Shown: positions 15,898-60,204, counted from the first letter of the stretch. The stretch: 64,000 bases of DNA from Methanomassiliicoccales archaeon (GCA_004377185.1 SOIM01000058.1:247-64246); one strand, 5' to 3'. The notes: generated from the letters alone by a model not told the origin. Program-made: numbers and translations.

Positions 15898-17670
15898 ATG
15901 AACAACAGGAGGACGAGTCTGTTCATAACGTTTCTCGTATTTGCGAGCACACTCTGTGCCAGTTTGGCTTTCGTACCGACAAATCTGAAGGCCACCACTC
16001 GATTTGTGGGTGGGACCAATCCTGGCAATTACACAACAATACAAGAGGCCATAAATGATTCGCAGTCTGGCGATGTTGTCTACGTCTACAACGGAACCTA
16101 TCATGAGCATCTCATCGTTGACAAATCAATCTCCCTGATCGGTGAAGAGAGGGGCACAACCATAATAGACGGTGATGGAAGCGGGGACGTTGTCAATGTG
16201 ACTTCTGATTGGGTGAACATCACTGGGTTCACGGTGAAAAACAGCGGACCTGACGGAGGTGACGCGGGAATAGAGCTGTATCACGTTCAGAACTGCAAGG
16301 TCACAAACAATACAGTCACAATTGACACTTATGGGATTTTTCTTGATTCATCCGCTAACAACACAATCTACAATAACACAGCTTCGCACGACCGCAGTGG
16401 CATAGTGCTCTTTTGGTCTTTCGACAACACGGTTATCAGCAACACTCTTACTCCAGACAGTACGAATGGTATCTTCCTTTACAGCTCTGAGAACAATACA
16501 ATTGCTAACAACACCTCTATAGACAACGGATACGGCATCTATTTCTGGTTCGCCATAAACAACACGGTAGCTGGCAACAACATATCTTTAAGCACTGGCA
16601 CAGGCATCTTGCTCTTCTGGTCCTACGGCAATGTCCTTTATCATAACAACTTCATCAATAATTCAAACCACGCCAGGGACAACGGGGTCAATACCTGGGA
16701 CGATGGATATCCTTCAGGGGGCAATTACTGGGACAACTACACGGGTTCCGACCAATTCTCCGGTCCCAACCAAGACCAACCGGGAAGCGACACTATTGGT
16801 GATTCAGCTCTTCTGATAGATTCTGACAGTCGGGATAGGTATCCGCTGATGTTCCCCTATGGAATGCCACCGCCTGGACCGCCGCCGATGTTGCGTGCCA
16901 CCTTGAGCGGCAGAGACATGGAAAACGTCACGCTGACTTGGTCTCTCTCCTCGGACGATGGGTCGGGTTACAAGTCAGTCATTGGTTACATGATCTACAG
17001 AAACGCATCTTATCATCCTGAGGGACTGGGCTACGGACAATACACGACCTTACCCAACGGAACTTCGGAGTTCATGGATGTTTTTGTCGGTGAAGGAGAT
17101 CCAAACAATTACTTCTACCAAGTATGCGCTTTGGATGTGAAGAACCAGAGCACGTGTGGGGAGAATCAGGTGGCCAAGTTCACTCGCACATTGGCACTGG
17201 GACCAAATCTTATTTCAATCCCATTGATTCAGTTAGATGAAAATGTAGAAACTGTTCTCCAAACGGTCTCGTTCGACAGAGCATGGTCATATGACGGTTT
17301 CAATCAGGAGTGGAAGTCCTTCATTAAATCAAAACCTTATCATGGAGGGCTCACCAGTGTGAATCATACGAGGGGGCTGTGGATGAATGTCACCCGGGAC
17401 TCAAATCTCACAGTCGCGGGAGTGGTTCCCTCAGCATCAAGAATCATTCTGAAAGCGGGATGGAATCTTGTCGGCTTCCCATCTTTTGATGAGAACCTTA
17501 CTGTCGCGGACCTCAAATTGAGTATAGTTGTGGAAAGAGTGGAAGAGTTTGATGCTTTGGCTACCCCATATTTCCTCAGATTGATGTTGGGTGGGGACAT
17601 CCTAGAGACAGGATATGCCTATTGGTTGAATGTGGTGGCTGAGACAACTTGGATAGTGCGAAATGAGTGA
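15898..17670 (+). CDS. Secreted NosD-like parallel beta-helix repeat surface protein (paralog 1, no C-terminal TM anchor).
   Basis: Signal peptide, then the TRFVGGTNPGNYTTIQEAINDSQSGDVVYVYNGTY and SLIGEERGTTIIDG modules. About ten NNTI/SxN beta-helix repeats, then YPSGGNYWDNYTGSDQFSGPNQDQPGSDTIGD...DRYPLM and an FN3-like domain. Dense in N-glycosylation sequons. Confidence 0.8.
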   Translation: MNNRRTSLFITFLVFASTLCASLAFVPTNLKATTRFVGGTNPGNYTTIQEAINDSQSGDVVYVYNGTYHEHLIVDKSISLIGEERGTTIIDGDGSGDVVNVTSDWVNITGFTVKNSGPDGGDAGIELYHVQNCKVTNNTVTIDTYGIFLDSSANNTIYNNTASHDRSGIVLFWSFDNTVISNTLTPDSTNGIFLYSSENNTIANNTSIDNGYGIYFWFAINNTVAGNNISLSTGTGILLFWSYGNVLYHNNFINNSNHARDNGVNTWDDGYPSGGNYWDNYTGSDQFSGPNQDQPGSDTIGDSALLIDSDSRDRYPLMFPYGMPPPGPPPMLRATLSGRDMENVTLTWSLSSDDGSGYKSVIGYMIYRNASYHPEGLGYGQYTTLPNGTSEFMDVFVGEGDPNNYFYQVCALDVKNQSTCGENQVAKFTRTLALGPNLISIPLIQLDENVETVLQTVSFDRAWSYDGFNQEWKSFIKSKPYHGGLTSVNHTRGLWMNVTRDSNLTVAGVVPSASRIILKAGWNLVGFPSFDENLTVADLKLSIVVERVEEFDALATPYFLRLMLGGDILETGYAYWLNVVAETTWIVRNE

Positions 17671-17847
17671 ACGAGCATTCTATCACAAGGTCGAGCCAGA
17701 ACTGTCGTTGTTGATGGGCAATCTGTCTTTCGATGGATTATTCGTGTGCTTTCAATGCCCTAATCCTCACACTTCTGTCATCCTTGACAATGAAGGATGA
17801 CGTTTCCAATTGGAATCCTCTGAAACCTTCATAATCCAAAAAGTACA

Positions 17848-18744: not shown

Positions 18745-18753
18745 TTGAGCACC

Positions 18754-22898: not shown

Positions 22899-25800
22899 TT
22901 ATCCTCTGTCGGCAACGATTTCCAAAGCATATGAAATCTCACCAGAATCGTCATCGAAAAGTGTGAGCACTAGATTGTAAGTACCTCTGTCCCAGTAAGC
23001 ATGTCGTACACTATCGGTGACCAGAACAGGATACACTCCCTCGGAACTTGGGTAGGGATCTGGATTCACGCCATCATTGTAGTATATATGACTCTCAAGA
23101 GTCCCATCTCCGAAGTCCCAAAGGAAAGCAAGGTCATCGCTGCCTGGATCACTCCCAGTCGCTGAGAAATCTACCAACGCAGCAGGCACTCCATCTCCGT
23201 TGTTCAGAGCGTCCGCTATGTCCTTTGCTCTTTCCAGTTCTGTTGTATCGTTAGTGTTCAGGATTATTTCCTCTGTTTCTTGAAGAGCCTCGGCCACAGT
23301 CGTTGCGTCCGTCAGATTGGGCAGATTGACAGGTGTCGACATTGACAATCCTTTCTTCACGACGATGTTGGACAGCAGAGCTAAGGCTTGTTGCTTGGCC
23401 TTGACGAGCATGTCATCTTCGCTTTCTTGAAAGAGAAGGGAACAATACTCCTCTCTGGATTGAAGAGTGAAAACTTGGGAATGATTGACTATTTCCGTCA
23501 CGTCTTTGCCTGTTATCCCAACATGATCTGCATATGGCTCTTCGATTGTGCACTGATGAGACCAATATCCTTTTGTTCGGGGATCGGTGTAATTTGCCGT
23601 ATAATTCGTGAATTCGATTGTAGGTGGCAGATTCTTAACGAGAACGTGAGCTTCGTCGTAGGCAACGTTGCCAGCTTCATCCACTACCCTCAAGGTGACA
23701 GTATAGTTGCCGTCGTCACCATACCGGAAAATCGGAGTTGGCCCCATTGCATCCACATCATTGGTGAGGTTTCCGTCCCCGTCAGAATCGAGGTAGTTGT
23801 TCATGTCCCATTCGTACGACTCTATTGCTACCCGTCCTAGAACAGTTCTTGCGTAATAGACCTCATATTCTCCTTCCCTGTTATCTATCCAAACCACATG
23901 GGAGTGCCCGTACTCATCAACGCCAAGTGATGGCCCTCCTTGCCAGGTATCATTTCTGCCGTGATTAGTTACGAGGACCCGACGAGAAGAATTATGCTGG
24001 CCTTCCTCAAACTCTGAGAACCATACGTTGTAGTCTTTGCTTGACTTGAAGAATTCTATCCACGCGATTCTGGGAATATCGTCGGGACCAATCGCTATCG
24101 ATGCCATGACAAGGTGTGCGCCCGTTCTGGCATGTTCATCACTTCTAACAAAGATACTTTCCTCGAACGTAGTACCTCCATCATTGGATTTGGAATACAT
24201 CAGTCTTTGAGTGACTTCATGGTAACTCCTTTCAAGCCACACAACATGAGGATTCCCAGAGGAATCAACATCCATGCTACCGATAACTTCATCCATTTTT
24301 CCCGTTTCCCCGTGCACTTTCAAGTTGGCACTGAAGGTTAATCCCCCGTCCTCGGATTTGGAATAGAAGACGTCAAGTTGGGCGTCTTCTCCAATCCTTC
24401 GCCCTGGCCACGCCACATGTATATTGTCGAATCTGTCAACAACCATTCTTGAAAGGAGACAACGAAGGCTAGCGTCTGACACGTCAAGGTCAGTCACCCG
24501 AGTAAGTTTTCCAAAGGACATTCCGCTGTCTTCTGATGTTAAATGATAGAGGTATTCCTTCATTCCAAGAGTCAACAAATGGATATTTCTTTCACTATCG
24601 ACCGAAAGTCCGCAAGAAATGTTCTGCAATAGCACGATGTGAGGCTCGTCGAAAGAAGCCCCGCCGTTCGTAGACTTGCTATAGAATATTGCCGAGCGAT
24701 ATCCACCTTCATCCACGCTTGTCCACACGACGTGAATCGTCCCGTCATCGTCAAGATCAAATCTGGGATTGAGCGTAGTCGCACCTGATTGTATCTTTGT
24801 CACGTTCATTATTTGGACATTTGGACCAAAAGTGAGACCACCGTCTACAGACTTGGAGTAAAAAAGGACAGCGTACATACTATGTTCAGCCGATTCCGTC
24901 CATATGGTATGGATTGTCCCGTTCTTGTCAATATGCATTTGAGGCTCACGGTGGAATCCTAAGAAGTGAGGATGATCCTCGCTCACCCTTAGGTTCTCGG
25001 AGAATATCCTTTCTACCCAGGAACCTACTGAATAAGAGCCGTCAAATTTCGCTGTCTCACCTTCAAATATTGTTTGATTTGGCCCAGCATCAGCTATTGG
25101 CCCTCCACAAGCACCAATAAGAATCTCAGCTGGCCCGATTCCATAGTACTTCGAAAAATTCACTTCATAAAACCAAATGTAGTACAAACCGGCAGGCACT
25201 TGTTCGCCCGAGGGTGGCACGGGAGGCGGTCCAAGCTCATATATCTGATATGTCTGGTTCCACACACCAGTTTGCGGACCCTCGAAATAGTACATTTGAT
25301 CAGCACGATTGACAGGCTTCACTATGGATTCATTCTTCTCATTCGTGATCGCGTAAAACAGTTCCGGAAAAGATCCAACTGCGGGTACCCAGATTCTACC
25401 CTCCACTGTGATAACAACATCTTCCCCAATTTCATAGCAATATTTGTCGGTTGACACTTCGATTGTCTCAGGGCCCTCACAGCCTCCTATTCTGAATTCC
25501 TTCGAATTTCCGATCAGGTGCACTTCGTCACCCACCCTCATTCTCCCTCCGGCCCACGCATTGTAAATCCCCTCTGGAACCTGCTCCCAACTTGGGGGTA
25601 ACATGTAAAACTCATCACCTTCCTCGCCCAAAGAATAGATGAGGTATGTCTGGTTCCAGACAAAATCCACACTTTCTCCAGGTTCCAATAGGAAATCGTC
25701 GACCACAATAGTCGCAACTATGATCATTACCGGTTCCATTCTCACCCAAGAACCATTGATGCCTGAGATCGTGTAGTAGGGATTCATCTGGTCGTCCCAA

Positions 25801-26027
25801 ATCGAGTGGTCAGGCCAAGAGGGTGGTACTCCTAGAAATGCAATCGTCTCATCTCCTGTGTTGGTAAGTGTTATCGTAACCATTTCACCCAAAGCATAGC
25901 AGTCCTTGTCCGTAGTTACCGTAACAGAGGCTTCATCCAATCCCACCTCCTCATGGAGATAGAACATGGGAAACAAGAGTAGCCCTACTATAGCAATGCA
26001 CATGAACACTACACGTCTGTAGATCAT
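22899..26027 (-). CDS. Giant secreted protein with BNR/Asp-box repeats and a C-terminal PKD-like module.
   Basis: 1042 aa with an N-terminal signal/TM and at least five S-x-D-x-G-x-(T/S)-F repeats (YSKSVDGGLTFG, YSKSTNGGASF, TSEDSGMSFG, YSKSEDGGLTFS, YSKSNDGGTTFE). The C-terminus GSDPGSDDLAFLWDFGDG...YYNDGVNPDPYPS matches the module in the 1-2421 protein. Confidence 0.7.
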   Translation of the reverse strand: MIYRRVVFMCIAIVGLLLFPMFYLHEEVGLDEASVTVTTDKDCYALGEMVTITLTNTGDETIAFLGVPPSWPDHSIWDDQMNPYYTISGINGSWVRMEPVMIIVATIVVDDFLLEPGESVDFVWNQTYLIYSLGEEGDEFYMLPPSWEQVPEGIYNAWAGGRMRVGDEVHLIGNSKEFRIGGCEGPETIEVSTDKYCYEIGEDVVITVEGRIWVPAVGSFPELFYAITNEKNESIVKPVNRADQMYYFEGPQTGVWNQTYQIYELGPPPVPPSGEQVPAGLYYIWFYEVNFSKYYGIGPAEILIGACGGPIADAGPNQTIFEGETAKFDGSYSVGSWVERIFSENLRVSEDHPHFLGFHREPQMHIDKNGTIHTIWTESAEHSMYAVLFYSKSVDGGLTFGPNVQIMNVTKIQSGATTLNPRFDLDDDGTIHVVWTSVDEGGYRSAIFYSKSTNGGASFDEPHIVLLQNISCGLSVDSERNIHLLTLGMKEYLYHLTSEDSGMSFGKLTRVTDLDVSDASLRCLLSRMVVDRFDNIHVAWPGRRIGEDAQLDVFYSKSEDGGLTFSANLKVHGETGKMDEVIGSMDVDSSGNPHVVWLERSYHEVTQRLMYSKSNDGGTTFEESIFVRSDEHARTGAHLVMASIAIGPDDIPRIAWIEFFKSSKDYNVWFSEFEEGQHNSSRRVLVTNHGRNDTWQGGPSLGVDEYGHSHVVWIDNREGEYEVYYARTVLGRVAIESYEWDMNNYLDSDGDGNLTNDVDAMGPTPIFRYGDDGNYTVTLRVVDEAGNVAYDEAHVLVKNLPPTIEFTNYTANYTDPRTKGYWSHQCTIEEPYADHVGITGKDVTEIVNHSQVFTLQSREEYCSLLFQESEDDMLVKAKQQALALLSNIVVKKGLSMSTPVNLPNLTDATTVAEALQETEEIILNTNDTTELERAKDIADALNNGDGVPAALVDFSATGSDPGSDDLAFLWDFGDGTLESHIYYNDGVNPDPYPSSEGVYPVLVTDSVRHAYWDRGTYNLVLTLFDDDSGEISYALEIVADRG

Positions 26028-39162: not shown

Positions 39163-42075
39163 TTAGTCTGAAGAATGTTCCGTGGTCTCGGGAGGTTCCA
39201 CACCTTCAGGTCTTTGTCTTCTTCTCAGTAAGAAGTAGAGTACCGAAAGTACGATAGCCAAAGAGACAACTGCTGCGACAACCGCCAACCACAGCCAATC
39301 TTCCTCAGGCTCTATTGGAGGAGGTGGGACAGGATTGTCAACAACTACTGATATGCTAACTTCAATCGAATAGTCCTCCCCATCATATGAACGGACATGT
39401 ACAGTATGATCCCCATTAGAGACAGTTGTTGTGTTCCATTCGTAACTCCATGATGTGGTGCCTGTCACTTCAATCCAAGAAGTACTGTCTATCCTAATCT
39501 CAACTTTCTCAACCGTCCCATCAATATCAGAAGCAGTGCCGTTCACGGTGATTGTGCCTGAAATCGCAGCTCCGTTAATTGGATCTGTAACGTTGCAGGT
39601 TGGGGGTTGGTTCTCAGGAGTTGCATTCGCCTCATTTGATCTTAGGCCTTCACCGAGCATATTGGTTGCGGTAACCTCATAATAGTACGTCTGGCCGTTT
39701 GTCAAACCAGTGTCCGTATGGGTGAGGACCTTGCCAATCTGCACAAGAAAAGCCTCCTCGCCCGATGCATCCCCTCGATATATTGTGTAATTCGTTATCG
39801 AGCGACCTCCGTTTTCCGAAGGTTGATCCCACGCAAGCGTTACTTCTCCGTTCCCAGGTGTTGCCTCAAGATTCCGTGGTTCTGATGGAGATGATGGGAA
39901 AGCAGGAACCACAAGAGGATACCAGTCCTTGTTCAATCCTCCCGGTATGTCATAGGGTACATCGCCTATTCCATCACTACCTGTCTGATCCTGATCTGGG
40001 CCGCTGTAGATGTCAGCGACAATGTAGTAAGCCCAGAAGTTACCACCCCATGGATAGCTGGTATTCCAGAAGTTGATGCCACTGTCAAAGGCGTGAGTTG
40101 TACTATCGCCAAAGATGTTATGATAAATGGTATTGAGCGCAGAGTGGCTGAGGGAAATGCCAATTTCATTGTTATCGAACGTATTATTCACAACAACATT
40201 CTCATGACAATCCCAGAGGTAGGCTCCATATTCATGATTCCAAATGACGGTATTGTTGCTGATGATAGTTCTCTTTGAATGGTTGAGAAGTATCCCGTTC
40301 AGTTTGTTCGACCTCACCGTGTTGTTTGCAATCAGGTTGTCAGAATTGCCGGTGGAATAGAAGTGAATGCCGTTCTCCTCGTTCGAGGCCAAGAAATTGC
40401 CAGTTATCGTATTATTCTGGTTCCATGAACTGAGTCTTATGCCATCGCGGCTATTCCCGTTCAGGCTGTTGTTCAAAATCGCGTTGCCATCAGAATATGA
40501 AAGGTATACCCCGTAAGAGTTGTCCGAGACTCTGTTGTCAACTACGATGTTGTTTTCGGAGAAGTAGAGAAATACGCCTCTGCTGTTCGAGTATGCAGTG
40601 TTCGTGTAAATGTTGCTGCGATTGGAACGATATAGGTGTATTCCGCTTCCTTTGCTCAAGTTGGCAGTGTTGTTGGCTATTTGAATGTTTGATGAGAAAC
40701 CAGCAGTAATCCCAGTATTGCCATTGCTGACATTCTGGTTCTCTATGACCACGCCTGAACAATTCGCAAGTATCACTTGCCCGGCACCAGATGGAACAGT
40801 TCCACCAGTGACATTCTTCCAATAGTAGAGAGGTTTGCTATTGACGGTGTTTGAAGTGTCGATGATATGGGTGTTCCAGTATTCAAGAGAGTCACCAGAC
40901 AGAGTAACCCCATTCTCCACCATTTGATTTTCAGTAAGTTTGTTCCTAACAGAACGTGCGCTGGCAATCCCCGTCCCGTTATTAAAGGACGCAGTGTTGC
41001 CAGTCAGGGTATTGTCGTTGGCGATCTCAAGGTAAAACCCATCCCAATTGTTGAAGGACGCATTGTTGTCAACAAACATGTTGTTGTTGGAGTCATCGAG
41101 CTCGAAGCCGTCCCCGTTGAGGACCACAGTGTTATTGAAAACATAGTTCTCATGGGATTGCACAAACCATATACCCCAGAGTATGTTTGATGCCACCGTA
41201 TTGTTCGCAATGTAGTTCTTTGACGAGAAGGCGATTTCCATCCCCGTGGTACTGTTGTCGATGTTCTGGTTCTCCACAACCACACCAGTGCAATTAGCCA
41301 AAATCACGTGACCAGCATCTGCAGGGACAGTTCCGCCGACAGCATTCTTGAGATATCGTACGGGCTTCCCGCTCACTGTGTTAGAAGCGTCGATTGTATG
41401 TGAGCTCCAGTGCTCCACGTCTTGACCATACATATAGAGTCCATTTCCGATCATCACATTGCCGGTAAGAGTATTGTTATAGGAACGAATGAGAGATATC
41501 CCATCATAGAAGTTCCAAGAGATGGTGTTGCCTGCGATAACGTTATCATTGGATTGATGGATGGTAATACCGCTTTCATTGTTCGAAATCACACTATTGT
41601 TGATGATAGTGTTGTTATGTGATTGATAGAGACTGATTCCCACAAGGTAGTAGGAAATGGTGTTATTGGTGATGGAACAGTTCTCCACATTCATCAATGA
41701 CATTGCAGGTGCAAAATCGTCATTCTTCGTCAGGGTGAATCCCGTGACGTTGACCCAATCGGTCTGCACTTCTATCCCACCCCAGTCGTAATTGCCACCG
41801 ATAATAGTCGTGTCTTTGTTCTCGCCAACAAGGCTAATGGGAGTTCTTATCCTTACAAATTCATTGTATGTCCCGTTGTACACGAAAACAGTATCACCAG
41901 GATTCGCATCATCCACTGCTCCCTGTATCGTCGTATAGTTTCCAGGACCACCTCCGCCAACGAAAAGAGTGACTGCTCTCGCATTCTCTGGCAGGACTGA
42001 CAAGATTGCACAGAAGCCACCTGCTACGACAAAAAAGGACACGATCAGACTCGCTTTTCCCCTCTTCATGCCCAA
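39163..42075 (-). CDS. NosD-like parallel beta-helix surface protein with FN3 and Ig-like domains and a C-terminal TM anchor (paralog 2).
   Basis: Signal peptide and the VTLFVGGGGPGNYTTIQGAVDDANPGDTVFVYNGTY module, followed by more than 25 beta-helix repeats and YPWGGNFW...GPDQDQTGSDGIGDVPY. The C-terminus has FN3, an Ig-like domain and EEDWLWLAVVAAVVSLAIVLSVLYFLLRRRQR. Confidence 0.8.
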   Translation of the reverse strand: MGMKRGKASLIVSFFVVAGGFCAILSVLPENARAVTLFVGGGGPGNYTTIQGAVDDANPGDTVFVYNGTYNEFVRIRTPISLVGENKDTTIIGGNYDWGGIEVQTDWVNVTGFTLTKNDDFAPAMSLMNVENCSITNNTISYYLVGISLYQSHNNTIINNSVISNNESGITIHQSNDNVIAGNTISWNFYDGISLIRSYNNTLTGNVMIGNGLYMYGQDVEHWSSHTIDASNTVSGKPVRYLKNAVGGTVPADAGHVILANCTGVVVENQNIDNSTTGMEIAFSSKNYIANNTVASNILWGIWFVQSHENYVFNNTVVLNGDGFELDDSNNNMFVDNNASFNNWDGFYLEIANDNTLTGNTASFNNGTGIASARSVRNKLTENQMVENGVTLSGDSLEYWNTHIIDTSNTVNSKPLYYWKNVTGGTVPSGAGQVILANCSGVVIENQNVSNGNTGITAGFSSNIQIANNTANLSKGSGIHLYRSNRSNIYTNTAYSNSRGVFLYFSENNIVVDNRVSDNSYGVYLSYSDGNAILNNSLNGNSRDGIRLSSWNQNNTITGNFLASNEENGIHFYSTGNSDNLIANNTVRSNKLNGILLNHSKRTIISNNTVIWNHEYGAYLWDCHENVVVNNTFDNNEIGISLSHSALNTIYHNIFGDSTTHAFDSGINFWNTSYPWGGNFWAYYIVADIYSGPDQDQTGSDGIGDVPYDIPGGLNKDWYPLVVPAFPSSPSEPRNLEATPGNGEVTLAWDQPSENGGRSITNYTIYRGDASGEEAFLVQIGKVLTHTDTGLTNGQTYYYEVTATNMLGEGLRSNEANATPENQPPTCNVTDPINGAAISGTITVNGTASDIDGTVEKVEIRIDSTSWIEVTGTTSWSYEWNTTTVSNGDHTVHVRSYDGEDYSIEVSISVVVDNPVPPPPIEPEEDWLWLAVVAAVVSLAIVLSVLYFLLRRRQRPEGVEPPETTEHSSD

Positions 42076-50588: not shown

Positions 50589-53342
50589 CAAACGATTTTC
50601 AGAATCTTCCTCAGATGGCGTCTCTGGTTGATCTTCCTCTTTGGATTTCTTCTTTCTGAGAAGAGCGAAGGTGACTAGTAATAGGGCAATCAATAGAGCG
50701 ATTGTCACGACAACTGCTATCCACAACCAATCTTGATCGGGTTCTTGTGAGGACGATGGAACAGGGTTGTCTACAATTACCGTTACGTTTGTTACAGTTG
50801 AGTAGTTAGATCCATCGTAGGAACGAGCATAGATTGTGTAATTGCCGTTTGGTACAGCTGTTGTATCCCAGTCATAGCTCCACGTTGTGGTGCCTGTGAC
50901 TTCTATCCACGAGGTTATGTTTATTCGAATCTCTACTTTCTCGACTGCTCCGTCAGGATCCGAGGCGGTGCCGCTAATCGTATAAATGCTTAACAAAGTG
51001 GAGCCTGGACTTGGAGCATTAATTGTACAGGTTGGGGGTCGGTTTTCAAGTGCGGTGACTTCAACTTGCCTGGCAGTGTAGTTTATCAGTCCACCTGTAT
51101 CTTCGACCTCGAGGCGGACTGTGTAGTCCCCTGGAGTGGAATACTGATGTTGGGCTGTCTTTGTGGTCGACCATGTTGTGTCCCATATACCGTCATCCTC
51201 CCAATCCCAGCGGACCACCAGATCGGCAACAGAATCTTCGTAATCTGAGGATGAAGAGGCGTTCACCGTGAAGATTGTGCTCACATTTCCACCAATAGGT
51301 GAGAGTGTGAAATGGGCGGTCGGCGGACGGTTTGGGATGGGCGTAAAGGTGACATTCACAGACGAGATCTCAGAGGGGTTTCCGGAATTATCCCAAGCAC
51401 AGGCTTCTATAAGGTTTGGGCCGGAATTGAGATCAAAAGAGGTGTTCCATGACGATGTCCCCATGGCATCTGACCAGAATCCTCCATTCAATCGCACTTT
51501 CACATCTTGAAGACCACTGCCACCGACGTCAAAGGCTGTACCAGTCACATTGATGCGGGGAGATTCGAAGTTCTGTCCCTCGGTAGGTGATACTATGGAC
51601 AAATAGGGTGGGAATGTGTCACCGCCGTGGGCGACCATGAGGGGATAATCATCCTGTATGTCTACGTCGATGAGGTAAGGAGTGTCTCCAATGCCATCCG
51701 GGTCTGGGCACACATCTTGGTTTGGGCCACTACAGTCATCCACACCAGTGTAATCGGACCAATAATTGCCACCCGAAGGGTAGTTGATGTTCCACCAGTT
51801 GATATCAGTGTCGTCATGCGGCTTGTCGTGAGCCTGTTGTGCATTCTGTATGATGTTGTTATGAAAAATAGTGTTGTTGTGGGAGGCGTATATAGATATG
51901 CCGTATTGGCGATTCGACAAGATGATATTGCCAGTTATGGTGTTTCTTTTGGAAAGAATAAGGGAGATTCCGTCCTCGTTGTTCGAGTACGCTTTGTTGT
52001 CTATGATTGTATTGAAGGCGGAAAGACCAAGGTTGATGCCATCGCCGTCGTTGTAGAAGGCGATGTTGTTGTTGATGATGATGTCAGAGGAGATGTCAAG
52101 GATGATGCCATTATTCCCATTCGAGTAGACAGTGTTGTTCGAGATGTTGCTGTCACGAGATTCTTCAACGTAGATGCCTTCACCGTTATCGAATGCGGTA
52201 TTATTGGTGACACTGCAACGGGAGGACTCATCGATGTGGAGGCCCTCACTGTTATCGAATGCGGTATTATTGGTGACTAGATTGTCGTCAGACATGTACA
52301 GAAAGATGCCAGCCGTGTTGTTCCGAACGGAGTTGTTGGCAACCCTATTGCCTGATGAAAAGCCGAGTAGGATTCCCACAGAAGCGTTGGTGATGTTTTG
52401 GTTCTCCACAACCACGTTCGAGCAGTTTGCAAGTATCACTTGCCCAGCATTCTGAGGGATTGTTCCTCCATTGGCGTTCTTCCAATAGTAGATGGGTCTG
52501 CCATCTATAGTGCTAGAGGTGTCGATAGAATGACTGTTCCAGTGCTCCAGCAAATCGCCTCGAATTTGAATTCCATTCTTAACCATCACGTTGCTACTGA
52601 TCGAACTATTGCCAGCATAATACAGCATGATCCCTACTTTGCTATTCGAGATGTTGTTGCCTACGACGGTGATGTTGTAGGATTGGCCAAGAGAGATGCC
52701 GTGCACCCGATTGTCTGAGATAGTGTTGTTGGCAACGATATTGTCGTCGGAATCGGTGAGAGTAATGCCAAACCAATTGCTCAAAGATACGATGTTGTTT
52801 ACTATGATATTGTCGTCGGAATCGGTGAGTGCAATGGCTTTCCAATTGCTCAAAGATACGATGTTGTTTACTATGATATTCTTGTCAGAAAAGTCGAGAT
52901 AAATGCCGTACTCGTTGCTGAAAACGATATTGTTGGCTACGAAGCACATCTGAACAGAATTGAGTGAGATTCCTGCGTCGGGCCAAAAAGACCCGCTGTT
53001 TGTTACGGTGAATCCCGTGACATTTGCCCAGTCAGCGGTTATGTGGATCGCATCCAAGATTCCACGACCGTCAATTATGGTTGTGTTTCTGTCCTCCCCT
53101 ATCAATGAGAGGGATTCATGGAGAATTATGTTCTCTGAATATGTCCCGTTGTAGACATAGACAGTGTCGCCTGGTCCTGCGTCATCTATCGCGTCCTGTA
53201 TCCTGGTGTAGTTTCCCGGACCCATTCCGCCCACGTAGAGAGTAGAGGCACTTGCATTTGAAGGAATGAGCGAAACGACGAAGCTGAATGAGCCGAGTAT
53301 CACGAGAAACACGGTTGTCAAGGTGAGTTCTGTCCTTTTCAT
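50586..53342 (-). CDS. NosD-like parallel beta-helix surface protein with PKD and Ig-like domains and a C-terminal TM anchor (paralog 3).
   Basis: Has the STLYVGGMGPGNYTRIQDAIDDAGPGDTVYVYNGTY module, beta-helix repeats, YPSGGNYWSDYTGVDDCSGPNQDVCPDPDGIGDTPY, a PKD domain (WDWEDDGIWDT) and an Ig-like domain. The C-terminus has DQDWLWIAVVVTIALLIALLLVTFALLRKKKSK plus an acidic tail. Confidence 0.8.
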   Translation of the reverse strand: MKRTELTLTTVFLVILGSFSFVVSLIPSNASASTLYVGGMGPGNYTRIQDAIDDAGPGDTVYVYNGTYSENIILHESLSLIGEDRNTTIIDGRGILDAIHITADWANVTGFTVTNSGSFWPDAGISLNSVQMCFVANNIVFSNEYGIYLDFSDKNIIVNNIVSLSNWKAIALTDSDDNIIVNNIVSLSNWFGITLTDSDDNIVANNTISDNRVHGISLGQSYNITVVGNNISNSKVGIMLYYAGNSSISSNVMVKNGIQIRGDLLEHWNSHSIDTSSTIDGRPIYYWKNANGGTIPQNAGQVILANCSNVVVENQNITNASVGILLGFSSGNRVANNSVRNNTAGIFLYMSDDNLVTNNTAFDNSEGLHIDESSRCSVTNNTAFDNGEGIYVEESRDSNISNNTVYSNGNNGIILDISSDIIINNNIAFYNDGDGINLGLSAFNTIIDNKAYSNNEDGISLILSKRNTITGNIILSNRQYGISIYASHNNTIFHNNIIQNAQQAHDKPHDDTDINWWNINYPSGGNYWSDYTGVDDCSGPNQDVCPDPDGIGDTPYLIDVDIQDDYPLMVAHGGDTFPPYLSIVSPTEGQNFESPRINVTGTAFDVGGSGLQDVKVRLNGGFWSDAMGTSSWNTSFDLNSGPNLIEACAWDNSGNPSEISSVNVTFTPIPNRPPTAHFTLSPIGGNVSTIFTVNASSSSDYEDSVADLVVRWDWEDDGIWDTTWSTTKTAQHQYSTPGDYTVRLEVEDTGGLINYTARQVEVTALENRPPTCTINAPSPGSTLLSIYTISGTASDPDGAVEKVEIRINITSWIEVTGTTTWSYDWDTTAVPNGNYTIYARSYDGSNYSTVTNVTVIVDNPVPSSSQEPDQDWLWIAVVVTIALLIALLLVTFALLRKKKSKEEDQPETPSEEDSENRL

Positions 53343-53379: not shown

Positions 53380-55515
53380 CTAACGTTTCATTCGGGGAGG
53401 TGGGGGAGGCGGTGGCAGTTCTTCATCCGGTGGTGGTGGAGGTACCTCTTCTACCTCTTCCATAGGTGGGGGAGGCGGTAATGTCTCTTCATACGTCACT
53501 TCAGGTTGCGGCTCCTTCTCGACCGCTGGTGGTTTCCTTCTTCGTCTTGTCGCAACTATCGCCAATGCTGCTATCAAAATGACCAGAACAATCAGAACGG
53601 GGATAAGCCACATCCAGTCCTGAACCGGCCTCGGGTTGTCCACAGTTACGGATATCGATGATGTCTCAGAATAGTCCTCACCATCGTACGACCGCACCTG
53701 GATTGTATGCTCTCCATTCGACACTCCCGTGGTGTCCCAGTTGTAGGACCATGAATCGGTTCCCGTGGCAGTCTCCCAGCTTCCGTCATCTATTCTTATC
53801 TCGATTCTCTCAACGGTCCCATCCGAATCTGATGATGCCCCTTCTACAGTGCACGTTCCGGAGACTATCGTTCCCGACTCTAGTGATGTGATCTCACACG
53901 TGGGTTCCAGGTTATTCGGGGCCACGTTCACCCAGTTGGTCCACTGGCTCTCGCCCACAGCGTTCTTCGCACTAATCCTGTAATAATAGTTCTGCCTGTT
54001 AGTGACATCATTGTCCGTGTATTCCTGGACGTTCCCAACCTCGGTAAGGAACTCAATGCCTCCGATGGATGTGTCTCGGTAGATTACGTAGTTCGTGATG
54101 GGTGACCCACCGTCGTACGCTGGCGCACTCCAGGTGAGCAAGACCTGATTGTTTCTTCCACTTGCTGTCAAATCCCTAGGCTTGTATGGTGGATACGGAG
54201 GCGACGTTAATGGTGAATTCATCAGAGGATACCTGTCCTGGTTGGTTCCGCCGGTTACGTTGTATGGTAAGTCCCCTATCTCGTCATATCCCGGCTGGTC
54301 CTGGTTCGGACCGCTCCTCTCATCGTCGCCCGTATAATCTCCCCAGTAGTTACCTCCCGATGGATATCCGTTGTCCCAGTAGTTGAGGCCCATGAAGTCA
54401 AGACCTTCGATGTCATGATTGCCCACGATTGTGTTGTGGTAGATGTTGTTATACCAGGACATCCAGACTTTGAAGCCGTCATGATCGTTGTCCCTGACAT
54501 CGTTTCTCACAAGGATGGTCCTGTTGGACATGTACAGCCCTATTCCAGTTTCGGAGTTTTCCGTCGCCAGGTTGTTCATGACCACATTGTCATCCGAGTA
54601 AGCGAGATTCATCCCATAGTAGTTCTGAAAGACCGTGTTGTTCTCTATCGTGTTGTTGTTTGCCTTGTGCACATATATGCCGTTCTTGGTCGCACCAGAG
54701 ACCGCGTTGTTGGCTATGGTGTTCCTTGACCCGTACCACAGCTCTATCCCCTTTTCACCGTTCACGGCGGTATTGTTCTGCAAAAGGTTGTACTCGTCGT
54801 TTCCAACATAGAAATTCCCTGTGTTGTTCACCGCTGTGTTATTGACTATCACGTTTCTGGGTCCGCTGGTTGAGATTCCATAATAGTTGTCTGATGCGTA
54901 GTTCTCGACCAGAGTGTTGTCCGATGAACCTCCTACGTTGATTCCGAACATACTGTTCCCGGAGGCAGTGTTGAAGGTTATTGTGTTGTTATCAGAGAAG
55001 ACGAGGAACATCCCATCCTCGTTGTCCTGCATTGTGTTCCCGGTGATGGTGTTGTGGTGTGATCGGAACAGTTCCAGGCCACCGCTGTTGTTGTGGATGA
55101 TGTTGTCTGCGATGGTGCAGTAATCTGCCAAGCTAATATCGATTCCAGCATCACCACCGCCTGGACCGCCATTCCTTATTGTGAAACCTGTGACACTGAC
55201 CCAGTCATCGGAGATTCGAATGACTGTCGAGCTCCCTCCGCCATCAATTATCGTGGTATTCTTATCTTCCCCCTCGAGATTGAGCCTTTTCGATATGGTC
55301 AGATGCTCATTGTATGTCCCGCTATACACGTAGACAATACTCCCGATGGGGGCCGCGTCCACCGCACCCTGAATCGTAGTGTAATTGCCAGGTCCAGGCC
55401 CACCCACATAGAGAGTTGCCGCTTTGGCATTCTCAGGAAGGATTGTGACTGCAAATGCGAATGCGCTCGCTAAGACTGTGACTATCACGACTATACAAGT
55501 ATCCCTGCGATGCAT
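53380..55515 (-). CDS. NosD-like parallel beta-helix surface protein with FN3 and Ig-like domains, a TM anchor and a polyproline cytoplasmic tail (paralog 4).
   Basis: Has the ATLYVGGPGPGNYTTIQGAVDAAPIGSIVYVYSGTY module and YPSGGNYWGDYTGDDERSGPNQDQPGYDEIGDLPY, followed by FN3 and an Ig-like domain. The C-terminus has QDWMWLIPVLIVLVILIAALAIVATRRRRK plus TLPPPPPMEEVEEVPPPPPDEELPPPPPPPRMKR. Confidence 0.8.
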   Translation of the reverse strand: MHRRDTCIVVIVTVLASAFAFAVTILPENAKAATLYVGGPGPGNYTTIQGAVDAAPIGSIVYVYSGTYNEHLTISKRLNLEGEDKNTTIIDGGGSSTVIRISDDWVSVTGFTIRNGGPGGGDAGIDISLADYCTIADNIIHNNSGGLELFRSHHNTITGNTMQDNEDGMFLVFSDNNTITFNTASGNSMFGINVGGSSDNTLVENYASDNYYGISTSGPRNVIVNNTAVNNTGNFYVGNDEYNLLQNNTAVNGEKGIELWYGSRNTIANNAVSGATKNGIYVHKANNNTIENNTVFQNYYGMNLAYSDDNVVMNNLATENSETGIGLYMSNRTILVRNDVRDNDHDGFKVWMSWYNNIYHNTIVGNHDIEGLDFMGLNYWDNGYPSGGNYWGDYTGDDERSGPNQDQPGYDEIGDLPYNVTGGTNQDRYPLMNSPLTSPPYPPYKPRDLTASGRNNQVLLTWSAPAYDGGSPITNYVIYRDTSIGGIEFLTEVGNVQEYTDNDVTNRQNYYYRISAKNAVGESQWTNWVNVAPNNLEPTCEITSLESGTIVSGTCTVEGASSDSDGTVERIEIRIDDGSWETATGTDSWSYNWDTTGVSNGEHTIQVRSYDGEDYSETSSISVTVDNPRPVQDWMWLIPVLIVLVILIAALAIVATRRRRKPPAVEKEPQPEVTYEETLPPPPPMEEVEEVPPPPPDEELPPPPPPPRMKR

Positions 55516-55628: not shown

Positions 55629-56876
55629 AGTATGTTCTCCAGACTCCTCTATGAGAGAAGTATCAGCAGCTTCTTCACCCTTTTCCTTCTTCTTCCTTCC
55701 AAAAAGCACTAACAAAGTCAGAAAGCCGATAAGTACTACGGCTACTAGCACCAAAAGCCATACTTCTTCAAGAACGGATTCCTCATGATCGTAGAATGGA
55801 TAGCGATCCTTGCTGTCTCCCCACCCAATACTGTAAGGTGAGTCAGCTATGCCATCACTACCAGGCTGATCTTGATCAGGGCCACTCTTCTCGTCAACTC
55901 CACCATAGTCGCTCCAGTAGTTGCCGCCCGATGGATATCCATTATCCCACTGGTTGCGATAGCCATCATCGAATGCCTGGTCCTTGTTGTTGAGGAAATG
56001 ATTATGGTAGACTGAGTTGTCGTTTGAGGAACCAAGACCAATACCGAACCTGCTGTTCAAAGAAATCGTATTGTTGAAAATAGTGTTGCCGTCACTCCCT
56101 TCAACTTGGATACCGACCTCATTCTCAGAAAAAGTGCTATTGGCAATCCAGTTACCGCTCGAGAGATAAAGAAGTATTCCTTTTTTTGTGTTCGAGGCGG
56201 TCAGATTCTCAATCGTATTGTAAGAGCTGTAGTGCGTCAAGACCATGCCGTGTCCGCTGTTCAAGGCGCGGTTATCTGCAATATAGTTATAACTCGACCG
56301 TTCAAGTCGGATGCCGTCCCAGGTGTTCGAGAAGTCGCTGCTGATGATTGAGTTGTTGTGAGAGTCAATAAGACTAATGCCGTGTCTGCCGTCCGAAGCC
56401 GAGATGTTGATGATTGTGTTGTTGTCTGAGGAATCAAGGATCAGACCGACATCATTGCTCATGGCAACAATATTCGTAATAGAACAATTCTCAGAATCGA
56501 GAAGTTCTATTCCAGCATCTCCTATGCGCGATCCGCTATCTGATACTGTGAATTCTGTGATATTGACCCAATCCGCAGAAACATGAACTACATCTCCAGT
56601 TCCTTCACCTATGATCGATGTCGTTCTTCTATCCTCCCCAGCAAGGGTGAGAGGTTTGTCAATCGCAAGATTTTCATGATACACTCCGTTGGAGACATAG
56701 ACAATATCACCAGGTTTTGCGTTGCCTATGGCATCTTGTATCGTTGTGTAGTTGCCAGGACCTGTTCCACCAACGTATAGAGTAGTTGCCTCCACCTTCT
56801 GAAACATAAGCATGGAGCCAACATAAAAAGTGCCGACACAGACCACGAGCGCAATGGACAGACTTGCTCTTTTCAT
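55626..56876 (-). CDS. NosD-like parallel beta-helix surface protein, short form with a TM anchor (paralog 5).
   Basis: Has the TTLYVGGTGPGNYTTIQDAIGNAKPGDIVYVSNGVY module and YPSGGNYWSDYGGVDEKSGPDQDQPGSDGIADSPY...DRYPF. The C-terminus has EEVWLLVLVAVVLIGFLTLLVLFGRKKKEKGEE. Start placed at internal MKRASLSIAL. Confidence 0.75.
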   Translation of the reverse strand: MKRASLSIALVVCVGTFYVGSMLMFQKVEATTLYVGGTGPGNYTTIQDAIGNAKPGDIVYVSNGVYHENLAIDKPLTLAGEDRRTTSIIGEGTGDVVHVSADWVNITEFTVSDSGSRIGDAGIELLDSENCSITNIVAMSNDVGLILDSSDNNTIINISASDGRHGISLIDSHNNSIISSDFSNTWDGIRLERSSYNYIADNRALNSGHGMVLTHYSSYNTIENLTASNTKKGILLYLSSGNWIANSTFSENEVGIQVEGSDGNTIFNNTISLNSRFGIGLGSSNDNSVYHNHFLNNKDQAFDDGYRNQWDNGYPSGGNYWSDYGGVDEKSGPDQDQPGSDGIADSPYSIGWGDSKDRYPFYDHEESVLEEVWLLVLVAVVLIGFLTLLVLFGRKKKEKGEEAADTSLIEESGEHT

Positions 56877-57113: not shown

Positions 57114-57262
57114 CTAGGACTCGACCTTACCTATCACGACCCTTTCCGGGTCAATCTCTTCTCTGAGAATCTAGAGCTCATCCTCCGTCGGCGGTCCCAG
57201 TTGTTCAAGTTCATCGACCACAGGGGGCTCGAAATCCATGTTCTCCAAGACTTGGACTAGGT
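57114..57262 (-). pseudogene. Fragment (3' end, ~48 codons, with an in-frame stop) of a glutaconate-CoA-transferase B-subunit paralog.
   Basis: The minus strand encodes LVQVLENMDFEPPVVDELEQLGPPTEDEL*ILREEIDPERVVIGKVES*. This matches the C-terminus of the intact gene at 60276-61082 (FVLDNMEFEPVVAGTLEELGPPTEEELKVLREEIDPDRVVIGRVD). There is no upstream continuation of the homology. Confidence 0.6.
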
Positions 57263-57388
57263 CTACAGGTTCTCGCCTGAGGTTGGGAAACGTAGAGGCG
57301 GATATTGGTGAATCTTATTGGTCTTGAGCAAGAGGAAATCCAGCGACTGATGATGGATAGAATAATATGAGAGGGTGCAAATCTAGAT

Positions 57389-58132
57389 ATGAGCGGTAGA
57401 TATGCCTGCCCACTTAAATCCCTGTCTGAAGGAGGCGATGCAGAGAACATGACAGTTCAGCTGTATATCCGACCACCGGCTGATTCGTGCAAGGAAATAG
57501 TCAGTGACATATACAAGGGACTTACCGAACTGGGATGGACAAACACAAAGTCGGTGCTCTATAGCAGCAATCAAGACGAACCAGTTGAGAACACTCCTGG
57601 GTCAGTGTATTTGGTGACTAGACCTGTCGAAGCAAAAAGAAGGTGGCGAGTACCACATGAATCAGTTCATGTGGAGTTCATGAAGGGTGAACAACGTTTT
57701 CTAATGTTTGTGGGTGTGGAATATCAGTACACGATTGAACTTGTGTTCTACGAAACTCTGTTTGAGCAGGGAAGAGGATTGGATGAGCTGAAAGATCTCT
57801 TTTCAATGCTGTCGTTACCTGAGGGCACTCATGTCCGAGGAGACGGACCCAGCGAAATCTACGGCGATGAAAAGACATGGAGGTTCAAGGGTGATCGGCT
57901 ATGGGAAGCCTACTTCTATATCGATCAAGTGAAGACATTACGATGGTCCAGAATCGTTAGTTGCTTTCCAGAGCTGGCGAAGAACGAACTGGCACGAATT
58001 GGAGACAAACACATTGTTGCGATGGGTGAGTCGCCCTATATTGAGGAGAAGGAAAGAGTGAGGGTATTTCCGTCCAAAAAGGAAAGGAAATCTGGAGTGC
58101 CAAAGTGGTATCGGGGAGAAAGAAGACCGTGA
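57389..58132 (+). CDS. Hypothetical protein.
   Basis: 247 aa ORF with protein-like composition and no recognisable motifs. It lies within the segment bounded by the gctB-like fragment and the intact gene. Confidence 0.4.
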   Translation: MSGRYACPLKSLSEGGDAENMTVQLYIRPPADSCKEIVSDIYKGLTELGWTNTKSVLYSSNQDEPVENTPGSVYLVTRPVEAKRRWRVPHESVHVEFMKGEQRFLMFVGVEYQYTIELVFYETLFEQGRGLDELKDLFSMLSLPEGTHVRGDGPSEIYGDEKTWRFKGDRLWEAYFYIDQVKTLRWSRIVSCFPELAKNELARIGDKHIVAMGESPYIEEKERVRVFPSKKERKSGVPKWYRGERRP

Positions 58133-58143
58133 ATACGAGCGCA

Positions 58144-60204
58144 TTATCTTTGTTTTCTCCGCCAGCCTCTGAGAAGAAGACGAATTGTGATTAGATTAAG
58201 TGAGACCATGGCAGCCAGCAAGAGGATAGCCTCCCAAAACCAATCCTCCTGTGCTTTTGGTGTATTGTCAACCAACAGAATGATTGAGACTTCGTTCGAA
58301 TAGCGGAAGCCATCATGGGAACGAGCATAGAGAGTGTGTTTTCCATCAGAGACATGTGATGTGTTCCACGGAAATGTCCATGAAGTAGTTCCATCCGTCT
58401 GTACCCATTCGCCATCATCAATTCTGACCTCGACTGCCCATATGATCCCGTCGGAGTCGAAAGCTGTTCCGAAAATGATGTGGGTACCATGGATCTCAGC
58501 TCCAGCAGGAGGACCAGTTATATTGCACAACGGGATGTTGTCTGTAAAAGGCTCAAGAGGAAGCTTAACGGGTTTCATGAAGGGATACCAGTCCTTAACG
58601 AAGCTTTCCTGAATCACATATGGCACATCACCAATTCCATCGCGCCCTGGGCCATCTTGGAATGGCCCATTCTTCTCATCAACGCCTTCATAGTCGCTCC
58701 AAAAGTTGCCCCCGGATGGGTATCCACTTGACCATGAATTGGTCCTAGTGCCGGGGTGAGTTTGAATCGAATTGTTTACGAAGTTGTTCTGAAAAATCAA
58801 ATTGCCTCCAGAATCCCAAAGATAGATCCCATAAAAGCGGTTGGAGGTAACACTGTTACCGCTCACAACATTGCTGTCTGAGTTGATGAGATGTATGCCG
58901 TGACTGTTGTTTGAAATGGAGTTGTTGACAATCTGATTCTCTTTTGAGTAATGAAGAGCGATGCCATGGCCATCGTTCCCGTGGATGTTGTTCCCAGACA
59001 GCCAACTTCCTTCTGAGAAGTAGAGTATCAAGCCAGCCGATCTCGACATGCTAACAATGTTGGACTCAACAACATTGCCAAACGACCGGCCGATGTTGAT
59101 GCCGACGGTGCTGTATAAGGCAGTGTTATTCTTCACAGTGTTGTTGTCAGAATAAAACAGACTTATAGCTTCCTGATTCTCTGATGCAGCATTGTGAATG
59201 ATGGTGTTGTTCTCAGAATATGCAAGGCTGATACCATCGAAGTTTCCTGAAACTAGGTTGTCAGAAATCACGTTGCCTGAGGAGAAGCCAAGCTGAATTC
59301 CTAGGGAAACATTACTTAAAGACAAACCCTCGACAAGCACATTAGAACAATTGGCCAGTATGACCTGTCCTGCATTCGATGGAACAGAGCCATGGATAAC
59401 ATTACTCGAGTAATAGAGAGTTCTTCCATTGACGATGTTTGAAGAGCCAATGGTATGAGAATTCCAATACTCGAGAGAGTTTCCCTCAAGGAGGATTCCG
59501 TTGTTTGTCAGAACGTTGCTTGTTATAGTGGTAGTTGTGGTATCTTGGAGATAAATCCCATACCAGCTGTCTGAGATCACATTGCTAGCAATAGAGTTGT
59601 CACCTGAGTCGCGGATATGAATTCCGTAGAATGAGTTCGAAAGCCAGTTGTTGCTTATCCAGTTGTTGTTGGAATGGGAGAGGAGGATGCCACTCTTGGT
59701 GAAAAAGGTGTTGGTTAACGAGTTGTAGTTGGAGTGTTTGAGATGAACCCCAGGATAGCCTTGAGATATGACTATACTATCAATGGTGCAATTATCCGCG
59801 TTTTCGAGTTCCAGTCCAACGGCCCATTTGTCTGTGATTGTGAGTCCAGTGATGTTAACCCAGTCAGCAGTAACTAGTATGACGTAAAGTTTCGAGCCAG
59901 ATCCAAGTATGGTCAAGTCCTTGTCCTCTCCAACGAGTGAGAGTGTCTTGTTCACCAGTACACTCTCCTCATAGGTCCCGGCGAAGATGAAAACAGAATC
60001 ACCGGGGCTGGCAGCGTCCACGGCGCTCTGAATTGTCGTATAGTTTCCGGGCCCTGATCCTCCGACATACAGAGTGGGGGCTGTGACAATTCCTGGCAAA
60101 GCAAGCAAGACAACATGAAAGGTGCCCACCAGAAAGAGAAGGCAAACAATCAACCTGGATTTCTTGTCTAAACATTCCACAACGACGTCTTTTTGTCCCA
60201 TCAA
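58144..60204 (-). CDS. NosD-like parallel beta-helix surface protein with an Ig-like domain and a C-terminal TM anchor (paralog 6).
   Basis: Has the PTLYVGGSGPGNYTTIQSAVDAASPGDSVFIFAGTY module, beta-helix repeats and YPSGGNFWSDYEGVDEKNGPFQDGPGRDGIGDVPY. The C-terminus has EDWFWEAILLLAAMVSLNLITIRLLLRGWRRKQR. Confidence 0.8.
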   Translation of the reverse strand: MMGQKDVVVECLDKKSRLIVCLLFLVGTFHVVLLALPGIVTAPTLYVGGSGPGNYTTIQSAVDAASPGDSVFIFAGTYEESVLVNKTLSLVGEDKDLTILGSGSKLYVILVTADWVNITGLTITDKWAVGLELENADNCTIDSIVISQGYPGVHLKHSNYNSLTNTFFTKSGILLSHSNNNWISNNWLSNSFYGIHIRDSGDNSIASNVISDSWYGIYLQDTTTTTITSNVLTNNGILLEGNSLEYWNSHTIGSSNIVNGRTLYYSSNVIHGSVPSNAGQVILANCSNVLVEGLSLSNVSLGIQLGFSSGNVISDNLVSGNFDGISLAYSENNTIIHNAASENQEAISLFYSDNNTVKNNTALYSTVGINIGRSFGNVVESNIVSMSRSAGLILYFSEGSWLSGNNIHGNDGHGIALHYSKENQIVNNSISNNSHGIHLINSDSNVVSGNSVTSNRFYGIYLWDSGGNLIFQNNFVNNSIQTHPGTRTNSWSSGYPSGGNFWSDYEGVDEKNGPFQDGPGRDGIGDVPYVIQESFVKDWYPFMKPVKLPLEPFTDNIPLCNITGPPAGAEIHGTHIIFGTAFDSDGIIWAVEVRIDDGEWVQTDGTTSWTFPWNTSHVSDGKHTLYARSHDGFRYSNEVSIILLVDNTPKAQEDWFWEAILLLAAMVSLNLITIRLLLRGWRRKQR

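Follow-up and report, generated by a model that had tools for sequence, protein, structure and literature searches.

The six paralogs and their beta-helix ectodomain

The DNA analysed here is a 64-kb window (the whole stretch of sequence under study) of a metagenome-assembled genome (MAG) labelled 'Methanomassiliicoccales archaeon' at NCBI (E3J35_ locus tags). It carries six genes, P1 to P6, for proteins with a NosD-like parallel beta-helix, five of which end in a transmembrane (TM) helix followed by a basic cluster. This C-terminal cassette, rather than the beta-helix family, is the interesting part of the locus and is so far uncatalogued; in full-text literature searches, neither the motif nor this family in Thermoplasmata turned out to have been described. 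The archaeal origin of the DNA was confirmed by a TBP gene at 14124-14672, and the P4 sequence corresponds without differences to E3J35_10295, an NCBI protein from the same MAG. All six open reading frames (ORFs) named in a preliminary description of the window were found at their places and on their strands, and the three modules it had listed were seen in the translations.

In all six proteins, a module T(L/R)(Y/F)VGGxxPGNYTxIQxA(V/I)...G(T/V)YxE stands right after a signal-peptide-like N-terminus, whose n-region is basic and whose h-region is hydrophobic, with a small-x-small site (mostly A-x-A) immediately ahead of TLYVGG. The N-terminal module is followed by a variable run of Asn-rich rungs and then by a post-helix module, YP(S/W)GGN(Y/F)W...GPxQD...DxI(G/A)D, which is likewise present in all six copies, with a small insertion in P3. 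Both modules are family-wide hallmarks of an already known kind of protein. Further domains recognized by Pfam between the post-helix module and the C-terminus are Big_7 in P2, P3, P4 and P6, fn3 in P2 and P4, and PKD in P3, the last preceded by a Glucodextran_B-like Ig domain.

P1 (15898-17670, plus strand, 590 aa) consists of a signal peptide, the N-terminal cap (16107 being its last and 15997 its first position), a short beta-helix, the post-helix module (16708-16857), an FN3-like region and a two-repeat C-terminal domain (17176-17667); it lacks a TM anchor. The other five genes lie on the minus strand. P2 (39163-42075, 970 aa) has a signal peptide, an N-terminal cap, a long beta-helix and a post-helix module; fn3 and Big_7 are followed by the anchor EEDWLW-TM-RRRQR (39211-39306) and an acidic tail (39166-39210). 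In P3 (50586-53375, 929 aa), the beta-helix and post-helix module lead through the Ig, PKD and Big_7 domains to the anchor DQDWLW-TM-RKKKSK (50640-50738) and a tail that ends EEDSENRL (50589-50639). P4 (53380-55515, 711 aa) has a beta-helix, a post-helix module, fn3 and Big_7, and its anchor VQDWMW-TM-RRRRK (53533-53625) is succeeded by a 50-aa acidic polyproline tail (53383-53532). P5 (55626-56966, 446 aa) is the minimal member, with the anchor EEVWLL-TM-GRKKKEK (55680-55769) directly after the post-helix module and an acidic tail at 55629-55679. The mechanical ORF start of P5 at 56966 adds 30 residues; Met31 (MKRASLS..., window position 56876) fits the signal peptides of paralogs and homologues and is, on this sequence comparison, probably the true start. 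P6 (58144-60204, 686 aa) has a beta-helix, a post-helix module and Big_7, and its anchor QEDWFW-TM-RGWRRKQR (58147-58251) ends at the stop codon, making it the sole anchored copy without a tail.

The fold was assigned from Pfam matches and a structure model. Pfam model NosD (PF05048) matched all six proteins with 107-237 bits against a gathering threshold of 23.6 (E 1e-30 to 1e-70), and Beta_helix (PF13229) matched all six with 69-191 bits against 25.9. P5, the only copy that was modelled, gave an AlphaFold2 (AF2) right-handed beta-helix with a predicted local distance difference test (pLDDT) score above 95 over residues 32-305; its post-helix module was poorly modelled (pLDDT about 35), and a long C-terminal helix was present. 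Foldseek returned a probability of 1.00 for P5 against AlgE4, NosD, alginate lyases and tailspikes, the closest solved folds being the A-modules of the mannuronan C5-epimerases AlgE4 and AlgE6, NosD, alginate lyases, a GH87 glucanase and phage tailspikes. NosD was the only solved structure also recovered by sequence (E 1.7e-6), and at 22% it was more similar in sequence than any other of the leading fold matches. The N-terminal cap, IQxAIxxAxxGDxIxVxxGxY, of P1 and P5 weakly matched the first part of the Pectinesterase model, at about 20 bits and thus below the cutoff of 27. The description of the six as NosD-like parallel beta-helix surface proteins is thus borne out by Pfam, the signal-peptide-like N-termini, the P5 model and the NosD and epimerase folds.

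The paralogs share their fold and Pfam families with NosD (PDB 7o0y/7osf, NosDFY(L) complex) and with the CASH superfamily including AlgE4/AlgE6. They differ from NosD in scoring below its subfamily cutoff, in having no nos genes nearby, in their additional Ig, FN3 and PKD domains, in the C-terminal membrane anchor, in the variable number of rungs and in an inserted EHWNSHTID...YYWKN module. Orthology to NosD was rejected, as TIGR04247 scored 116-171 bits against a cutoff of 300. No nosZ, nosF, nosY, other ABC transporter gene or N2O reductase gene was seen in the Pfam scan of the sizeable ORFs of the window. The ectodomain would be engaged in glycan binding or glycan modification at the cell surface, and nothing beyond that can be read from it.

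Three paralogs carry the inserted module in their beta-helix. P2 has two copies (aa ~205-275 and ~385-455), and P3 (aa ~262-330) and P6 (aa ~230-300) have one each, with the consensus G(I/L)xxxGxxLEHWNSHTIDxSNTVxGKP(V/I)YYWKNxxGGT(V/I)PxxAGQVILANCxxVxVENQN. It accounts for patches of 70-74% DNA similarity between P2 and P3 and was not noted in the preliminary description.

Glycosylation sequons occur at a density of 1.6-3.9 per 100 aa in the paralogs versus 0-0.7 in the cytoplasmic proteins of the window. Part of this density is due to the Asn-rich rungs, and only P1-P3 exceed composition-matched shuffles. No S-layer family was among the Pfam matches of the six, and the S-layer role considered in the preliminary description is supported neither way.

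The six proteins are 31-45% identical to one another, and DNA similarity among them is confined to short patches of 68-78%. They are thus old, true paralogs, and duplication by assembly was rejected on the same figures, in agreement with the preliminary description. The six are only part of the family in this MAG: a second tandem cluster of four paralogs (locus L003) and at least two further copies bring it to at least 12. Tandem clusters of two and of five paralogs occur in related MAGs, and identity between P4 and its orthologues from other MAGs is 53-63%. The family's expansion and its clustering are conserved traits rather than fast-evolving ones; the suggestion of rapid evolution could not be upheld given the age of the paralogs, the orthologue identities and the recurring clusters. 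A search with P4 gave 2844 homologous proteins at E<=1e-10, and the named proteins among the best 120 of these were labelled Thermoplasmata, Thermoplasmatota, Methanomassiliicoccales or Methanobacteriota archaeon. Judged from sequence, the family appears to be large and old, with thousands of relatives in Thermoplasmata. In itself the beta-helix family is ordinary, and the six add a new set of members to a protein type that is already known.

Large secreted repeat or beta-helix families that are likewise expanded and clustered are the adhesin-like proteins of gut methanogens (Methanobrevibacter, Methanosphaera), and the Flg_new proteins of host-associated Methanomassiliicoccales are, in the available passages of PMC9723798, a comparable case of expanded surface families. 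Their domain sets are different, however, and the anchor module is found neither in those passages nor in the titles and abstracts listed by a literature search on such proteins.

In P1, a domain of ~165 aa with two repeats (aa 427-590), preceded by a conserved Cys pair, replaces the TM anchor. It reads KFTRxLxxGPNLxSIPL...GxWVNVT...AGWNLVGFPSF...GYWxxVxxxxxWxVxN-COOH. A TM-less terminal domain of this type stands in place of the TM anchor in 26 of the 120 best P4 homologues. A profile search with it yielded 178 proteins, all 'hypothetical', the named ones almost all from Thermoplasmata-type MAGs. No Pfam family lies on the domain; its AF2 model was mediocre (pLDDT 60.6), and Foldseek found nothing in the PDB at E<=1e-3.

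The C-terminal module and its range

A C-terminal hydrophobic helix with an adjoining basic cluster was found in five of the six paralogs (best 19-aa Kyte-Doolittle average 2.3-3.4) and is missing from P1 (1.08). The sequence just before the helix is DWLW in P2 and P3, DWMW in P4, DWFW in P6 and VWLL in P5; the helix of P6 includes E, N and R residues. The preliminary description had ascribed a tryptophan motif, a TM helix and a basic-then-acidic tail to five copies. Helix and basic cluster are indeed shared by all five, P5 having W-L-L in place of W-x-W, and the acidic tail is found in four, since P6 ends at its basic cluster.

For a set that is free of circularity, we took the best 120 P4 homologues by whole-protein similarity, without consulting the anchor. 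A C-terminal TM helix was present in 89 of them. A boundary Trp at the outer membrane side was seen in 81 of these 89, and the full W-x-W in 49. At each of six boundary positions, Trp amounted to 16-28%, as compared with 1.9% of ectodomain residues and ~0% of those in the TM core. When the 89 sequences were aligned on the basic cluster, the profile ran from a Pro-rich linker through an acidic patch, Trp, the hydrophobic core and K/R to an acidic tail, with K/R at 100, 82, 91, 75 and 63% over the five positions of the cluster. The Trp pair is preceded by a preference for acidic residues or Gln, and two sub-consensus forms were discerned, EPxQDWLW and S(I/V)FE(E/Q)xWFW.

Over 183 tails, the segment including the basic cluster had a median length of 23 aa, and Glu accounted for 19% and Pro for 16% of its residues; only four were 8 aa or shorter, and P6 is the only such case in the window. 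Runs of PPP occurred in 44 of the 183, and the ends ...PPEEP(L/I) and ...EEDSENR(L/F/I) recurred. Among nine P4 orthologues, mean pairwise identity was 0.49 in the tail, 0.53 in the beta-helix and 0.50 in the TM core. The tails of P4 and of orthologues P0002-P0006 keep two or three acidic polyproline repeats, EE(L/I)PPPPP(D/E), which we take to resemble eukaryotic proline-recognition ligands. A zinc ribbon, CxxC...CxxC, occupies the extreme C-terminus of 9 of 179 tails. Its carriers (P0156, P0169, P0195, P0199, P0203, P0220, P0222, P0237 and P0241) have long, acidic tails, and the same arrangement was seen at locus L011.

Besides the five anchored proteins of the window, a motif scan showed anchor-type copies of the same MAG in P0016 and in at least two members of the L003 cluster. 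With P0010, which likewise combines a TM helix with a boundary Trp, at least nine copies reside in one MAG.

The distribution of the module was followed with a profile of 46 positions (A1). The profile was built from W-x-W sequences, and the W-x-W of its matches is therefore partly present by construction. Within A1, selected as it was for W-x-W, only W11 and W13 are invariant, and mean column identity is 37%. Searched against 1.84 billion cluster representatives, A1 returned 248 matches at E<=1e-3, nearly all of them at the C-terminus. Among 131 new matches, W-x-W immediately adjoined the start of a TM helix in 122, of which 73 carried neither the beta-helix nor Big_7. Ten carriers scanned with Pfam yielded BNR, fn3, P_proprotein, CarboxypepD_reg, NHL, Big_5, GH130, Big_13 and PKD. 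Such unrelated ectodomains on the module were not seen inside the window itself. A word-indexed homology search with A1 gave a single irrelevant match, the index being swamped by low-complexity words.

A DNA scan of GTDB species genomes for [IVM]FE[EQ]xWFW gave at least 120 loci. Among the matches listed, all nine loci labelled Thermoplasmata or Methanobacteriota had the motif in anchor context, two of them being incomplete or ending early, and in no other lineage was the motif combined both with a TM helix and with a basic cluster that leads into an acidic or Pro-rich tail. Most of the loci listed were chance matches or belonged to an unrelated conserved 43-aa C-terminus of Lachnospiraceae, so that they sample the taxonomic range. 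The neighbourhood of one of two further carriers contained archaeal marker genes (aIF5A, PUA); that of the other was uninformative. The module is carried by many other Thermoplasmata genomes. From these sequence matches, we regard it as a real and modular unit that is missing from curated libraries and seems to be confined to Thermoplasmata.

The scan also led to seven Myxococcota loci (L051, L070, L073, L085, L098, L101 and L116), from Polyangiales, Sandaracinaceae, Bradymonadales and other myxobacterial MAGs, whose proteins end in S(V/I)FE(E/Q)xWFW, a TM helix rich in Gly, Ala and Val and a short non-basic tail. Several have signal-peptide-like N-termini. The nine-residue juxtamembrane motif is the same as that of the FEQxWFW sub-type of Thermoplasmata, here in bacteria instead of archaea, its Ser lying outside the search pattern. 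Four of the Myxococcota tails were scanned and had no Pfam or NCBIfam match.

Membrane anchoring weighed against sorting

No Pfam or NCBIfam model reached its cutoff on any tail, including PGF-, PEF-, GPS-, GG_III-, Loki-, Heimdall- and JDVT-CTERM and LPXTG. The best NCBIfam scores were 16.5 for PEF-CTERM (cutoff 23), 15.2 for LPXTG (15.9), 15.4 for GPS-CTERM (28) and 15.5 for GG_III-CTERM (22); Loki- and Heimdall-CTERM gave ~10-11 against 20-24, and Pfam Gram_pos_anchor gave 13.3 against 20. Membership in the PGF, PEF or LPXTG classes was rejected on these scores, which agrees with the earlier statement that the signal is not PGF-CTERM. Matches below threshold went to many generic single-pass TM families. 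One family member is annotated elsewhere as 'LPXTG-motif cell wall-anchored', an annotation that presumably arises from the TM helix and basic cluster.

The module nonetheless resembles the tripartite signals (PGF-, PEF-, VPXXXP- and CGP-CTERM, LPXTG, Loki-/Heimdall-CTERM) in its short motif, TM helix and Arg/Lys cluster, in its many copies per genome and in its occurrence on unrelated surface proteins with signal peptides. It departs from them in a W-x-W signature devoid of Pro, Gly or Cys, in a conserved tail of median 23 aa and in the lack of an enzyme gene nearby. A different precedent is the stable C-terminal TM anchor, as described for Sulfolobus SlaB (PMC6098224) and Haloferax HVO_0844 (PMC12462473). 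There, as here, an exported ectodomain (through Sec or Tat in those cases) sits on one C-terminal helix, which in those proteins is not removed; what sets the present proteins apart is a recognizable, conserved cassette, with a Trp collar and an acidic, Pro-rich tail, on many non-homologous proteins of one lineage.

We consider it most likely that the cassette varies the ordinary mode of C-terminal TM anchoring and does not represent a new sorting system. To a stable type-I anchor whose cytoplasmic tail is functional we assign a probability of about 60%. According to this model, the proteins would be secreted by Sec and probably N-glycosylated, leaving a right-handed parallel beta-helix of the NosD/CASH type outside the cell. 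In five proteins of the window, which would be bitopic and of type I, transfer would be stopped by a C-terminal helix that spans ~19-22 residues between the last boundary Trp and the basic cluster, and four to five Arg/Lys residues would hold the C-terminus in the cytoplasm by the positive-inside rule. The acidic patch and W-x-W at the outer end of the helix may lie in the lipid-water interface and fix the register of the helix. The mature protein would keep its acidic, proline-rich tail on the cytoplasmic side. The four parts (W-x-W, TM helix, basic cluster and acidic/Pro tail) would thus form a portable cassette placed on many unrelated ectodomains. The earlier proposal of a distinct anchoring or sorting motif holds insofar as the module is distinct, conserved and modular; of its two options the evidence favours anchoring.

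An anchor is favoured over a cleaved signal because the tails are long and conserved, because some of them bear zinc ribbons, and because no sortase-like gene lies nearby. The preliminary description had recommended looking for a co-occurring sortase or rhomboid, and none was found: the 64-kb window and six related neighbourhoods contain no sortase, exosortase/archaeosortase, rhomboid or CPBP gene. If the module were instead a new tripartite signal, a 'WxW-CTERM', an intramembrane protease or transpeptidase of Thermoplasmata would read W-x-W and remove helix and tail, and the ectodomain would then be joined to a lipid or an envelope component, as ArtA does for PGF-CTERM. We regard this as unlikely. 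Among the eight attributes that Haft ascribes to tripartite C-terminal sorting signals (bioRxiv 10.1101/2023.06.07.544157) is a signature of three residues. On this point the module is a borderline case: it has two near-invariant residues, its W-x-W is complete in 49 of the 89 unbiased homologues and is W-L-L in P5, and the signature is longer in the EPxQDWLW and S(I/V)FE(E/Q)xWFW sub-motifs. The module lacks the C-terminal position on that list, given the length of the tail after the helix, and in the window P6 alone qualifies. Moreover, Trp at the ends of TM segments is a general trait of membrane helices.

Several points speak for cleavage or weigh against a permanent anchor. The module displays attributes 2, 4, 5, 6, 7 and 8 of the same list (multiple copies per genome, TM helix, basic cluster, signal peptides, unrelated carriers and homologues without the module; 10.1101/2023.06.07.544157), and its restriction to one lineage, with nine out of nine loci in anchor context among the matches listed, is in keeping with a dedicated system. 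P6 stops exactly at its basic cluster, as signals of the classical layout do, and a tail might be conserved for a function that precedes cleavage. The enzyme search covered the window and the six neighbourhoods, and signal peptides and topology were judged by inspection and hydropathy only. The Haloferax S-layer glycoprotein was itself long held to have a plain TM anchor until its processing by ArtA was found (PMC6098224). A cleaved signal retains its share of probability because of this precedent, the layout of P6 and the local scope of the enzyme search.

A refinement of the anchor model, which it would not exclude, is that adhesin- or sensor-like ectodomains are coupled across the membrane to a cytoplasmic partner recruited by the acidic/polyproline or zinc-ribbon tail, so that the proteins would act as receptor-like or cytoskeleton-linked surface molecules of a lineage in which a rigid wall is often missing. 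The retention of EE(L/I)PPPPP repeats among P4 orthologues, the PPP runs, the recurrent extreme C-terminal motifs and the terminal zinc ribbons all argue in this direction. However, an acidic, Pro-rich tail could equally be a passive spacer or topology determinant, the partner is only hypothetical, P6 has no tail, and the tails of P2 and P5 are short and unremarkable; coupling of this kind seems quite improbable to us. Far weaker is the case for W-x-W likeness as a product of shared ancestry and generic TM composition without a specific function. The six are paralogs, their tails match generic single-pass TM families below threshold, and a near-identical S(V/I)FE(E/Q)xWFW-TM occurs in Myxococcota proteins. 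Yet the boundary Trp persists where the rest has diverged, W11 and W13 being invariant in the W-x-W-selected A1 and a boundary Trp being present in nearly all of the unbiased set, and the explanation is largely refuted by the occurrence of the module on non-homologous ectodomains. We therefore give it hardly any weight.

Although Thermoplasmata abound in sediments, oceans and guts, and a conventional wall is missing from many of the cultured members, the attachment of proteins to their surface is poorly understood. A portable anchor cassette can be searched for with a small profile, which would flag a surface proteome of this lineage that is now labelled 'hypothetical' or mislabelled 'LPXTG-anchored'. 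It also offers a concrete test of whether there is a further archaeal sorting system and whether the cytoplasmic tails of archaeal surface proteins have partners. That the module is the recognition element of a Thermoplasmata-specific sorting system with its own enzyme, or that the tails couple to a cytoplasmic partner, is a doubtful prospect in our estimate. Should coupling be true, archaea would possess receptor-like type-I membrane glycoproteins.

Other genes of the window and of related loci

Every sizeable ORF of the window was scanned against Pfam. The remaining genes are those of ordinary metabolism, i.e. beta-oxidation-type enzymes, 2-oxoacid:ferredoxin oxidoreductase, leucine-type biosynthesis and CoA transferases. 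Between P5 and P6, an ORF of 247 aa without a Pfam match (57389-58132) lies on the opposite, plus strand. It is absent among the called genes of the related paralog clusters examined and is probably not part of the beta-helix/anchor system. Two more ORFs had no Pfam match, one of 207 aa (62333-62956, minus strand) and one of 290 aa (3985-4857, plus strand).

In L003 of the same MAG and in L125 and L126 of relatives, the paralog clusters adjoin a small ORF of 99-108 aa. Genes for an aminotransferase, a Cu-type P-type ATPase (HMA/E1-E2), DsbD_TM and DUF1573 come next in L003 and L125, and cupredoxin-like, SCO1/SenC and Rieske genes are close by in L126. A role in copper maturation, as the Cu-ATPase and cupredoxin neighbours might imply, was rejected; the neighbours are only suggestive, and no such genes lie in the window.

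Two further large ORFs, 16-2421 (plus strand) and 22899-26027 (minus strand), contain PKD domains. In one of them, a BNR_4 region and a hydrophobic N-terminus are present as well; the second begins at the edge of the window, so that its true start may lie beyond it. Beta-helix and C-terminal anchor are both absent from the two ORFs, which probably encode surface proteins. As they fall outside the family, the surface proteome of the window would exceed the six paralogs.

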